DNA of 64,000 nucleotides from Marinifilum caeruleilacunae (GTDB lineage Bacteria; Bacteroidota; Bacteroidia; Bacteroidales; Marinifilaceae): contig NZ_RZNH01000009.1 in assembly GCF_013141825.1 (NCBI RefSeq), forward strand, positions 76,117-140,116, written 5' to 3'. The translations under genes were made by a program, and so were the position numbers. Under the pieces are notes generated by a model. It made no database searches. It was not told where the DNA came from and saw only the letters and a program-made list of their open reading frames with translations. Shown here piece after piece: positions 46,143 to 46,671 of this stretch (position 1 is the first letter of the stretch; every line of letters starts with the position of its first letter).

Positions 46143-46290
46143 GGTATGAAAAAAAATACCTTCTGGAAAGAAGGAAAAGGCATGAAAAAATCCACAGTTC
46201 ACAGACCTGACTTAAGTTTCTGTATGGCTTGGTAGTATTTGCTCAGTAGAGTTGAATATGCTTCTGTTACTGATGGAATTTTTCATTCAC

Positions 46291-46352
46291 GTTGTGTGTC
46301 GGGGGTTCGAATCCCTCTCCGTAAGGATAGCTCAGTTGGATAGAGTAACAAC
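46291..46352 (+). ncRNA. Circularly permuted tRNA-like element (Y-RNA-like / YrlA-type tRNA mimic): terminal stem, variable loop, T-arm, GNRA-capped acceptor hairpin, D-arm, then back to the terminal stem
   Basis: GTTGT (46291-95) pairs with ACAAC (46348-52). 5-nt variable loop GTGTC. Canonical T-arm GGGGG-TTCGAAT-CCCTC (46301-17). Mini acceptor hairpin TCC-GUAA-GGA. Then U8 and A9. Canonical D-arm GCTC-AGTTGGATA-GAGT (46330-46). Tertiary-interaction identities are preserved: U8, A14, G15/C48, G18G19, T54-Psi55-C56, A58. Confidence 0.5.
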
Positions 46353-46671
46353 CAAATTTTGGACTGAAAATCCAGAAAAGAGAAGACAGGCACTTCACCA
46401 AACGCCTACCAGCCGAAAGTAATTTGTGCCAGACCAGCTTCACTTCATGCGAGTAAAGCAGTCTTGACAAAGTTTTGAAAGTTGTAATTTCTTTCAAAGG
46501 AGATATTTGCTTCACAAGTCTAAGAAATGTGAATCCTTATAGTAGCGGATCTACACTTGCGAACCATCTGTTGCAATTTGAAAGCATTATAAGTTCCACT
46601 CTGAAAAGATGGTTGGGTACAAGTTTCTTTCTTTTTAAATGAAAATAAAATCAAACTAACACTATACAACT

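Follow-up and report, generated by a model that had tools for sequence, protein, structure and literature searches.

The closest described counterparts of the RNA element reported here are the bacterial Y RNAs of the YrlA type. According to PMC4201824, YrlA genes are almost always located within 4 kb of a Ro60 gene, and the YrlA of M. smegmatis is an RNase P substrate to which CCA is added in vitro. Near its 5' end, YrlA carries the motif GNCGAAN0-1G, through which it may contact Ro60/Rsr (Chen et al. 2014). In Salmonella, tRNA halves induce rtcBA via RtcR, and YrlA, which is not itself cleaved, was proposed to be a competitive inhibitor of an anticodon nuclease (PMC7790460). Two further systems combine RtcB with proteins of the SPFH/Band-7 (slipin) family. 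Burroughs and Aravind predicted in 2016 a Band-7-associated tRNA-like RNA ("b7a-tRNA") as a cofactor of RtcB systems, and, as quoted in 10.1101/312249, they also placed YrlA occasionally beside Band-7 genes. Experiments in Anabaena have shown that translation stress induces a co-repressed set comprising a tRNA array, rtcB and a slipin gene (PMC8421152, PMC10272220).

A sequence-only reading of a 64-kb stretch of Marinifilum caeruleilacunae DNA (hereafter, the window) had singled out positions 46261-46400 as a YrlA-like, circularly permuted tRNA mimic upstream of an SPFH-rtcB gene pair. The features of this locus, as established or predicted in the present analysis, are as follows.

45011-46030, minus strand: divergent WYL-WCX transcription regulator, 339 aa (Pfam WYL 1.8e-10, WCX 3.1e-12)
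46067-46089, no strand: operator-like repeat ACTACGCAAAAAGATTGCGCACT with two TGCGCA-type half-sites, directly upstream of a conserved TTTG (46101-46104)
46204-46266, plus strand: conserved 5' leader domain, comprising GACCTGA, a 3-5 bp covarying stem around the loop TTTCTGTATGG, TAGT, a variable hairpin and the box ATATGCTTCTG
46291-46352, plus strand: circularly permuted tRNA-like module (sequence reading, Rfam YrlA similarity, covariation)
46291-46295 with 46348-46352, plus strand: closing stem GTTGT/ACAAC, 5 bp, in the anticodon-stem position
46296-46300, plus strand: variable loop GTGTC, 5 nt, containing C48
46301-46317, plus strand: T arm GGGGG-TTCGAAT-CCCTC
46318-46327, plus strand: acceptor-like hairpin TCC-GTAA-GGA, 3 bp, with a GUAA cap
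46328-46329, plus strand: U8 and A9
46330-46346, plus strand: D arm GCTC-AGTTGGATA-GAGT
46347, plus strand: A26
46359-46375, plus strand: anticodon-arm mimic, a 5-bp stem TTGGA/TCCAG with the 7-nt loop CUGAAAA (C32 U33 GAA A37 A38)
46382-46407, plus strand: H-type pseudoknot, with S1 GAAG (46382-85)/CTTC (46393-96), S2 AGGC (46388-91)/GCCT (46404-07) and an A-rich linker (46397-46403)
46408-46671, plus strand: remainder of the conserved leader up to the SPFH start codon, with conserved islands GAAAG (46415-19), CAGTCTTGA (46459-67), AACC (46562-65), TTCC (46595-98) and GATGG (46608-12)
46672-47775, plus strand: SPFH/Band-7 "slipin" protein, 367 aa (Pfam Band_7 3.4e-33)
47802-48965, plus strand: RtcB RNA ligase, 387 aa (Pfam RtcB 2.3e-121)

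Every arm, stem and core nucleotide named in the sequence-only reading was found within the module, in the 5' to 3' order closing stem, variable loop, T arm, acceptor-like hairpin, U8-A9, D arm, closing stem. Expressed in terms of a tRNA, this order corresponds to the 3' strand of the anticodon stem, the variable loop, the T arm, a loop-closed acceptor stem, the D arm and the 5' strand of the anticodon stem. The minimum free energy structure of 46270-46385 was exactly the expected four-way junction plus one 3' hairpin, with a folding energy no better than that of shuffled sequences (z = +0.61). The window contains a single copy of the combined T-loop/D-arm pattern (GGTTCGAWTCCN{12,17}TAGYTCA), and none of 100 shuffles contains it. 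Together with the Rfam YrlA match, which is the best-scoring one, the lack of any ARAGORN tRNA and the covariation seen in 71 loci (see below), this excludes a chance match.

The element was also assessed as an ordinary or permuted tRNA or a tmRNA, and these identities were rejected. ARAGORN called zero tRNAs and zero tmRNA over the whole window, and Rfam at gathering threshold gave nothing there; the Rfam tmRNA match is confined to an 18-nt T-arm stretch (8.8 bits). A tRNA gene is likewise ruled out by the GUAA-capped acceptor hairpin, the lack of an anticodon loop within the module and the absence of CCA. The arrangement does resemble the permuted tRNAs of Cyanidioschyzon merolae and the two-piece tmRNA, in which the 3' half (T arm and 3' acceptor strand) precedes the 5' half (5' acceptor strand and D arm). 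However, those genes mature to a functional RNA with a free CCA end, whereas the window element has a closed acceptor hairpin and, unlike the two-piece tmRNA, no tag reading frame. In relatives, weak normal-order Rfam tRNA matches (29-43 bits) span D arm 1 to T arm 2 of adjacent modules, but a normal-order tRNA across two modules was discarded: pairing within the local hairpins is far better than pairing between modules, and only one module exists in the window.

The similarity to YrlA is of a different kind. Rfam YrlA (RF02553) is the best and only meaningful Rfam similarity (local scan, 32.3 bits, E 4e-5), and cmscan aligns its T, AS and D arms to the window module, which bears out the claimed YrlA-type topology. 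The same Rfam comparison upheld only part of the earlier assignment: YrlA is indeed the best match, but its score falls below the gathering score of 69 bits. In common with YrlA, the element has the permuted order of T arm, acceptor-like stem-loop and D arm, with a closing stem where a tRNA has its anticodon stem, the conserved tRNA core nucleotides, the 15:48 covariation and a location on the same strand upstream of rtcB. On the other hand, it scores less than half of the gathering value, lacks a nearby Ro60 gene, the GNCGAAN0-1G motif and a long terminal stem, is embedded in a leader of ~560 nt carrying an anticodon-arm mimic and a pseudoknot, is represented in relatives by two or three tandem modules, and has an SPFH gene and a WYL regulator as its partners in place of Rsr and RtcR.

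A genuine Y RNA, meaning a YrlA orthologue whose Ro60/Rsr partner is encoded at another site in the genome, would be consistent with this topology and best Rfam similarity, with an RtcB operon context like that of rsr-yrlBA-rtcBA and with a view restricted to 64 kb of the genome. We regard it as highly improbable. None of 20 related loci reached the YrlA cutoff, whereas six RtcB-linked metagenome loci recovered with the same DNA pattern, which served as a positive control, are canonical YrlAs with 73.8-81.7 bits. The GNCGAAN0-1G motif was not found within 270 nt upstream of the window module, and among the related loci it is present at chance level (12 of 72, at inconsistent positions, with about 7 expected from shuffles). 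As the motif is absent, the closing stem, previously taken for a Ro-binding stem, is not one. Pfam analysis of the eight ORFs within about 4 kb, spanning 40648-51046, detected GH2, GH5-like, WYL, Band_7, RtcB and Exo_endo_phos domains and no TROVE/Ro gene; it thereby confirmed the earlier statement that Ro60 is missing nearby and that SPFH adjoins the RNA, and the locus departs from the usual proximity of YrlA and Ro60 given in PMC4201824. Moreover, no conserved outer stem was seen beyond the 5-bp closing stem: a candidate long terminal stem of the Ro type, formed by TTTTTCA in the 5' flank and TGAAAA, was rejected because it overlaps the conserved anticodon-like hairpin, and no equivalent pairing was seen on reading the relatives. 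A canonical YrlA was therefore rejected by score, motif and Ro linkage.

The conservation of the RNA was assessed by a comparison of Bacteroidota loci. In 71 of 80 loci the same module lies on the strand of the orthologous SPFH gene, at a distance of 363-920 nt upstream from it, and this linkage persists where the RtcB subfamily differs or where there is no RtcB within 3 kb. All four helices covary in a sequence-only MAFFT alignment of 37 sequences, with pairing in 94.3% of cells (44-50% in slid controls) and compensatory changes at 18 of 21 base pairs. Over the 71 loci, the tertiary Levitt pair 15:48 is G:C in 54, A:U in 12 and other in 5, while U8, A9, A14, T54, C56, A58 and the D-loop GG show little or no variation. 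The proposed conservation and covariation of T arm, D arm and closing stem in orthologous rtcB-upstream regions was thus substantiated. The covariance model R1 scores the window module, itself a seed member, at 70.1 bits. When a metagenome collection was searched starting from the DNA pattern, RtcB and/or SPFH occurred on the same fragment in 17 of the 34 permuted modules recovered. The window module is a reduced form, with a single copy and a 3-bp acceptor-like stem, whereas most relatives have 5-8 bp and two or three tandem modules.

These data bear directly on the alternative, foreseen in part in the sequence-only reading, that the element is without function of its own: a tRNA gene that has decayed or been rearranged, or a junction between adjacent tRNA genes. 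The order of T arm, acceptor and D arm is that expected from two tandem tRNA genes, and R1 does detect such junctions in tRNA arrays, albeit at lower scores (about 18-56 bits); indeed, the module probably arose from a junction of this kind. As a description of its present state, a functionless remnant is scarcely credible. It is refuted by the position shared among 71 loci across the phylum, by compensatory changes in all helices and in the tertiary pair, and by the identity of the leader as a whole; the flanking tRNA halves are also absent (ARAGORN, Rfam). In four close relatives, with SPFH proteins 72-84% identical, the whole intergenic region shows a mean column identity of 83%, and the whole leader is under purifying selection. 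Judged by its conservation, the sequence singled out earlier represents a genuine and strongly conserved RNA, predicted to fold like a rewired tRNA.

The conserved RNA proved far larger than 46261-46400, the extent originally assigned to it. A leader of roughly 560 nt (about 46110-46671, plus strand), located between the divergent WYL regulator and SPFH-RtcB, is conserved across the phylum and contains a conserved 5' domain, the tRNA-like module, the anticodon-arm mimic and the covarying H-type pseudoknot; the module is one domain of it, at variance with the original notion of a discrete small Y RNA. Conservation peaks in the 5' domain (72-sequence profile), where the stem flanking the UUUCUGUAUAG loop occurs in GAG/CTC, GCG/CGC, GGG/CCC, GTG/CAC and AAG/CTT variants (46 loci). 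In the anticodon-arm mimic all five pairs covary, and 96% of cells pair as compared with 34-56% in slid controls (alignment A5). When hairpins were collected with the loop sequence left free, 21 of 23 had U at position 33 and 21 of 23 had a purine at position 37, while the anticodon-like central triplet varies widely even among close relatives (GAA, AAA, GUA, GUU, ACG, GUG and others). Since the MAFFT alignment was too unstable over the pseudoknot for column-pair counting, this part was evaluated by permuting partners between loci. Complementarity between the hairpin loop and a stretch past the A-run exists in 47 loci, the longest complementary run averaging 5.02 nt with the own partner versus 3.72 nt with partners from other loci, and none of 5000 permutations reached the observed value; a compensatory change of S2 (AGGC/GCCT to AACC/GGTT) is seen in the relative locus L086. 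No Rfam family covers the leader. A hammerhead or a preQ1 riboswitch, suggested by CUGAUGAG in the 5' domain of relatives and by the pseudoknot with its A-rich tail, was dismissed, there being no Rfam match up to E 10. Overall, the analysis identifies the element as a YrlA-type tRNA-like domain, circularly permuted and independent of Ro, which forms the core of a long structured RNA, either a leader or a noncoding RNA.

With respect to transcription, the scan for terminators found none on the plus strand between the module and SPFH (minus-strand sites only), which is more in keeping with a leader than with a free small RNA. Sequence scans of the window locus failed to locate the promoter or the ends of the RNA: a sigma-70 promoter scan found nothing, and the Bacteroidetes -7 motif TAnnTTTG occurs once, at 46136, where it is not conserved in relatives. 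Within the flanks retrieved, 30 of 80 related loci have the WYL regulator gene at this position, as do the close relative loci L081, L084 and L086. The operator-like repeat upstream of the leader, a putative WYL binding site, is invariant in four close relatives and is kept in distant loci (e.g. ACTGCGCAAAAAGACTGCGCAGT in L001).

Such an arrangement could also accommodate a cis-acting bait or sensor, in which the tRNA-like domain and the anticodon-arm mimic are bound or cleaved by anticodon nucleases or stress factors and feed back on the operon. Several variants can be envisaged, in which the leader titrates the nuclease, its fragments are sensed by the WYL protein, or its refolding (through the pseudoknot and the 3' region) permits SPFH-RtcB expression until RtcB reseals the RNA and switches the system off. 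The position of the element in a 5' leader with no terminator before SPFH, the divergently encoded ligand-sensing WYL regulator and the pseudoknot with an A-rich linker directly after, resembling small riboswitch aptamers, are all suggestive of this scheme. So is the anticodon-like loop, which keeps the 7-nt Y32-U33...R37 format while its triplet varies widely between species. Yet the same variation may be neutral, and some loops, such as CUAAAAA with the triplet AAA, are not known to correspond to any bacterial tRNA. Module 1 is devoid of any anticodon loop, and no conserved alternative pairing that would link cleavage to expression was found. The Salmonella precedent is two-sided, with the induction of rtcBA by tRNA halves and the proposed inhibitory role of YrlA on the one hand, and a YrlA left uncut by the nuclease on the other (PMC7790460). 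We consider a cis-acting bait or sensor possible but unlikely. Its most explicit form is a self-reporting sensor of tRNA damage, a mimic encoded in cis that combines a tRNA body with a detached, fast-evolving anticodon arm. Attack or binding by invading anticodon nucleases, cleavage and RtcB resealing would switch the operon (with its spare-tRNA array in relatives), and the WYL protein or the pseudoknot would read the state; this form is slightly less likely still.

A feature of the relatives that enters into this argument is that 44 of 71 loci carry between 1 and 15 tRNA genes on the same strand, immediately before the module. The types found are mostly ones targeted by anticodon nucleases (Tyr, Gln, Phe, Lys, Asn and Asp), which speaks for a bait or sensor. 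The upstream genes could also be taken to favor a processing or stability element, the tRNA-like fold serving as a signal for tRNA nucleases (RNase P, RNase Z, exonucleases) that splits the tRNAs from the mRNA or guards the mRNA 5' end. The longer acceptor-like stems of relatives (5-8 bp) fit this idea, as does the cleavage of M. smegmatis YrlA by RNase P and its CCA addition in vitro (PMC4201824). However, the window locus and its clade have no upstream tRNA genes and yet keep the module, and a processing signal needs no intact D arm, Levitt-pair covariation, anticodon-arm mimic or pseudoknot. With an acceptor-like stem of just 3 bp, a poor substrate for RNase P, recognition of the acceptor/T stack by RNase P or the like is doubtful for the window form, and we deem the processing reading improbable.

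The predicted b7a-tRNA is compared here as it is quoted in 10.1101/312249. It shares with the window locus an RtcB operon, a Band-7/SPFH gene and an adjoining tRNA-like noncoding RNA, and the scaffold and the RNA are proposed to act as paired cofactors, by analogy with Ro and Y RNA, as a prediction that awaits experimental validation. A Ro-less Band-7 arrangement is thus not without precedent; a Ro-independent relative of the Y RNAs was predicted in outline in 2016 and has never been characterized. Nevertheless, b7a-tRNA is described there as strongly resembling an authentic tRNA, and no such gene is present in the window; the divergent tRNA-Tyr-like genes found further upstream in relatives (36-47 bits) may represent it. 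Similarly, YrlA beside Band-7 genes is called occasional in that text, whereas the permuted module is the rule at the loci analyzed here. The Anabaena regulon (trn array, rtcB, the slipin gene alr0740 and the repressor TrcR) shares tRNA arrays, RtcB and a slipin/SPFH protein under a dedicated repressor. Unlike the window operon, its genes are scattered, its repressor is a ribbon-helix-helix rather than a WYL protein, and no tRNA-mimic leader has been reported for it (PMC8421152, PMC10272220).

The protein linked to the RNA across these loci is the SPFH protein. In a comparison with PDB sequences it matched stomatin and HflK. Its AlphaFold model comprises three 5-stranded beta modules, an SPFH core and long helices, with extra beta modules at the N-terminus, and no hydrophobic membrane-spanning stretch was seen on reading its sequence; the protein is accordingly predicted to be soluble. 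A Foldseek search with the model retrieved stomatin, HflK/C and prohibitin rings and, over the full length, the major vault protein, so that its structural neighbors are ring or cage formers. The vault likeness comprises beta-repeat modules, an SPFH-like domain, a long helix and a genetic link to a small structured RNA. Still, the SPFH protein has about three repeats as opposed to nine in the major vault protein, the TM-score of their alignment, obtained with a predicted model, is low (0.33), and vault RNA, unlike the window element, is no tRNA mimic. A phage origin was also considered and set aside, as a collection of viral contigs contained no SPFH relatives. A repair context is indicated by RtcB in the window and, at other loci, by an RlaP nucleotidyltransferase and an RNase T-like exonuclease.

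Taken as a working model, the RNA may be the partner of the vault-like SPFH protein and of RtcB, a tRNA mimic and an SPFH oligomer forming a ribonucleoprotein in RNA repair; we favor this tentatively, with a confidence that stops a little short of evenly balanced. According to this model, the WYL protein would use the conserved TGCGCA repeats to keep the promoter repressed until RNA is damaged or translation is stressed. On derepression, the leader, SPFH and RtcB would be produced jointly, in relatives along with spare tRNAs. An L-shaped tRNA mimic with intact elbow and core, complemented by a detached anticodon-arm mimic, would be the cognate RNA of a soluble SPFH oligomer, and the resulting ribonucleoprotein would recruit RtcB and tRNA-recognizing factors to broken tRNAs. 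The pairing of SPFH and RNA would thereby parallel, by analogy, those of Ro60 with Y RNA and of the vault with vault RNA. Binding between the RNA and SPFH is something we purely infer, and the strict SPFH linkage fits a cis-regulatory leader equally well.

Prior work on Y-RNA-type tRNA mimics in RtcB repair operons has centered on Ro60. Here, a widespread lineage keeps such a mimic without a sign of Ro and ties it to SPFH, a WYL regulator and, in many loci, spare tRNAs, which implies that the function of the mimic is separable from Ro. The parts of the leader are defined well enough to seed a new Rfam family. In addition, the compact and tractable operon, present in culturable Bacteroidota (Marinifilum, Draconibacterium, Chitinophaga, Flavobacterium), is suited to asking whether a tRNA mimic acts as scaffold, decoy or sensor in tRNA repair and in toxin or phage conflicts. 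If the sensor reading were true, the leader would define a new class of damage sensors built on RNA, and a bacterial RtcB would act on it directly as a substrate in vivo.

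The sequence-only reading had proposed a circularly permuted tRNA mimic upstream of the SPFH-RtcB operon, and its topology was right: all of the elements it listed are present at 46291-46352 on the plus strand, and the minimum-free-energy fold of 46270-46385 reproduces the four-way junction, together with an extra 3' hairpin. The features of the locus and, on the unnumbered lines, the parts of the module (5' to 3', plus strand, by direct sequence reading) are:

45011-46030, minus strand: WYL-WCX regulator (Pfam)
Between the WYL-WCX and SPFH genes: intergenic region of 640 nt
46067-46089, adjoining the WYL gene: operator-like repeat, two TGCGCA-type half-sites ~13 nt apart
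46204-46266, plus strand: conserved 5' domain in which a covarying stem encloses the loop UUUCUGUAUGG (covariation across loci)
46291-46352, plus strand: permuted tRNA-like module
start: closing stem, 5' strand, GTTGT
variable loop, GTGTC, with C48 at its end
T arm, GGGGG-TTCGAAT-CCCTC
3-bp hairpin with a GNRA loop, TCC-GTAA-GGA
U8 and A9, TA
D arm, GCTC-AGTTGGATA-GAGT, with A14, G15, G18 and G19
end: A26, then closing stem, 3' strand, ACAAC
46359-46375, plus strand: anticodon-arm mimic, stem TTGGA/TCCAG, loop CUGAAAA (covariation)
46382-46407, plus strand: H-type pseudoknot of a GAAG/CTTC hairpin, an A-rich linker and a complement of the hairpin loop (permutation test)
46672-47775: SPFH/Band_7 protein (Pfam)
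47802-48965: RtcB (Pfam)

The folding energy of 46270-46385 is ordinary (z = +0.61). The short-gap T-loop/D-arm pattern occurs once in the window and not at all in 100 shuffles. As had been expected, no tRNA gene is called: ARAGORN reported neither tRNA nor tmRNA across the whole window.

The comparative analysis covered 80 loci from named genomes, gathered through SPFH protein alignment and thus blind to the RNA. With the window element as nhmmer query, plus-strand matches upstream of SPFH were found in >50 of the 80. When 37 modules are aligned with MAFFT, 94.3% of cells pair in the proposed structure (versus 44-50% with slid partners), with double (compensatory) changes in 18 of 21 pairs; the closing stem, which played no part in choosing these sequences, is 87% paired and covaries in 5/5 pairs. 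A covariance model made from this alignment (R1) gives high-scoring modules at 71 loci, lying 363-920 nt (median 497) ahead of the SPFH start, and in five of the nine loci without one the sequence ends too soon upstream. The strongest test of a tRNA-like three-dimensional fold comes from columns that the covariance model treats as unpaired. Of the 71 loci, 54 have G:C as the Levitt pair 15:48, 12 have A:U and 5 another combination; U8, A9, A14, T54, C56, A58 and T60 are invariant, and the D-loop GG is kept in 70. Conservation and covariation of the T arm, D arm and closing stem upstream of SPFH-RtcB orthologues, on which the original proposal hinged, are both observed. Because the module is conserved in these 71 loci, with helix and 15:48 covariation and the tRNA core nucleotides kept, it can be neither a chance match nor a decaying pseudogene; that the module is a relic we consider exceedingly improbable. 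A conserved, structured, tRNA-mimicking RNA domain is genetically locked to the SPFH-RtcB operon with its WYL regulator.

Assignment of this domain to the YrlA family of Y RNAs was not borne out. At gathering thresholds Rfam gives no match in the window; in a permissive local scan YrlA (RF02553) is the only meaningful match, and its model aligns the T, acceptor-like and D arms at the correct places. The best similarity is indeed to YrlA, but at 32.3 bits (E 4e-5) it lies below the gathering score of 69. The definition of YrlA given by Chen et al. 2014 (PMC4201824) combines a tRNA-like domain with a 5'-proximal GNCGAAN0-1G motif, a presumed Ro60 contact, and with a same-strand Ro60 gene no more than 4 kb away. 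The window module has the tRNA-like domain. The motif was not found in the window, and across 72 loci it turns up in just 12, its position varying (~7 expected by chance); Pfam detected no TROVE/Ro60 domain in the eight ORFs at 40648-51046, in agreement with the Ro-less locus originally described. Nor did 20 related loci yield a match at the Rfam YrlA threshold. As a positive control, metagenomes were scanned for the same short T-loop/D-arm DNA pattern, yielding 121 matches, 34 of them with a self-complementary acceptor-like hairpin and 17 of these 34 sharing their fragment with RtcB and/or SPFH. Rfam called canonical YrlA (74-82 bits) in six RtcB-linked metagenome loci and in none of the SPFH-linked ones. 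Since the YrlA score, motif and Ro-linkage tests fail for the module, and the control loci reach the YrlA score, the module represents the YrlA design in a separate, Ro-independent lineage; a true Y RNA with its Ro encoded elsewhere, which would share that design, is very unlikely. Five other metagenome loci (L096, L105, L111, L127 and L188) carry permuted tRNA-like modules beside RtcB that score below the YrlA threshold, on fragments with no SPFH gene (L111 has two, 133 nt apart), and are possibly further unclassified variants.

While the feature is real and was correctly described, not only its family but also its extent had been misjudged: the conserved RNA extends far beyond 46261-46400, and the module is a single domain within it. 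Over its whole length the intergenic region shows 83% identity when the window is compared with Marinifilum fragile and two relatives from metagenomes; their SPFH proteins share just 72-84% identity. A 72-sequence profile has conservation islands from ~46100 up to the start codon. All five pairs of the anticodon-arm mimic covary (96% of cells pair), and its loop is usually a 7-nt Y32-U33...R37 with a variable central triplet. Pseudoknot complementarity is maintained through many different sequences (e.g. AGGC/GCCT becomes AACC/GGTT in the close relative L086), and with partners swapped between loci the observed value was reached in 0 of 5000 permutations. The architecture is reminiscent of preQ1-I/SAM-II-type aptamers; Rfam has no match for 46382-46407. 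The motif within 46204-46236 reads GACCUGA(UGAG)-stem-UUUCUGUAUAG-stem-CAUAGU, the middle pair of its 3-bp stem taking all four Watson-Crick forms across loci. In the 5' domain of relatives, CUGAUGAG looks like a hammerhead or C-box, with no Rfam match. The operator-like repeat, invariant in close relatives and conserved also in distant loci, is probably the WYL binding site. No plus-strand terminator was found between the RNA and SPFH. A leader acting in cis as bait or sensor is possible, if rather unlikely; one serving as a processing or stability signal is less probable still.

In the window the module is present in reduced form. Most relatives have an acceptor-like stem of 5-8 bp and carry permuted modules in tandem, two or sometimes three of them, the final one running straight into its own anticodon arm. 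In 44 of the 71 loci the stretch separating the WYL gene from the leader holds 1-15 or more ordinary-looking tRNA genes, immediately ahead of the leader and in its orientation (e.g. L056 1396-2320, L059 1205-2157, L045 260-1554, L065 61-2431); none were found in the window and its nearest relatives. Tyr-GUA is commonest, with Gln, Phe, Lys, Asn and Asp next in frequency; these upstream genes include no Ala or Thr tRNA and a single Gly tRNA. Closest to the leader lies a tRNA-Tyr-like gene (L001 2219-2302, L002 2250-2335, L013 2259-2344, L058 2318-2402); the Rfam tRNA model gives it only 36-47 bits, versus 55-75 for array tRNAs, and it may be the Band-7-associated b7a-tRNA of Burroughs and Aravind. 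The module likely originated from a pair of neighbouring tRNA genes within an array, since such a junction yields the observed arm order and R1 detects junctions, at lower scores. In two Carboxylicivirga loci (L030 and L031, about 2590-2650) a T-arm-like hairpin, CAGG-TTCGAAT-CCTG, replaces the anticodon-arm mimic, which suggests that tRNA-derived parts are interchangeable.

In other loci SPFH and RtcB are separated by inserted genes for an RlaP nucleotidyltransferase, TPR proteins or an RNase T-like exonuclease (L032 4143-5935, L024 5077-5613, L005 4455-4976, L009 4706-5233), and the RtcB there belongs to a different subfamily (~35% identical to the window RtcB). Marinifilum fragile and a relative (L081 4851-6107, L086 4293-5230) have a second RtcB and a PrfH-like RF-1 gene convergent to the operon, with an added TPR protein in Marinifilum; the window has there a 187-aa ORF (49002-49565, minus strand) without Pfam or NCBIfam match. 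Viral contigs yielded no relatives.

The SPFH protein shares 84% identity with its M. fragile counterpart, which puts the window among Marinifilaceae-like Bacteroidota. Its residues 132-345 can be aligned with stomatin and HflK, and no hydrophobic, membrane-spanning stretch was seen in this 'slipin' on reading its sequence by eye. Its AlphaFold model (mean pLDDT 77.7; >85 for residues 1-280) comprises an SPFH core, long helices and three beta modules of five strands each, two of these modules being extra and N-terminal. Foldseek ranks ring- and cage-forming SPFH proteins first; the full-length match, a weak one, is major vault protein (E about 1e-7, >420 aligned columns, TM-score only 0.33). 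The fold neighbours and the apparent lack of a membrane stretch fit, and so suggest rather than prove, a soluble, mini-vault-like oligomeric scaffold.

According to the bioRxiv preprint of Wang et al. 2018 (10.1101/312249), Burroughs and Aravind (2016) predicted a Band-7-associated tRNA-like RNA beside RtcB, YrlA occasionally adjoins Band-7 genes, and such Band-7-linked predictions are without experimental validation. The Salmonella operon is induced by tRNA halves, and YrlA has been suggested as a possible competitive inhibitor of an anticodon nuclease (Hughes et al. 2020, PMC7790460). In Anabaena, TrcR co-represses a tRNA array, rtcB and a slipin gene, which translation stress induces (PMC8421152, PMC10272220); the upstream arrays of the related loci resemble this one. 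This kind of RNA had already been predicted, and it is the Ro-independent, multi-domain Bacteroidota leader itself that is uncharacterised and not in Rfam. We tentatively favor, with less than firm confidence, a role in which induction of the operon would bring the leader along, and this RNA would partner with the SPFH scaffold and with RtcB.
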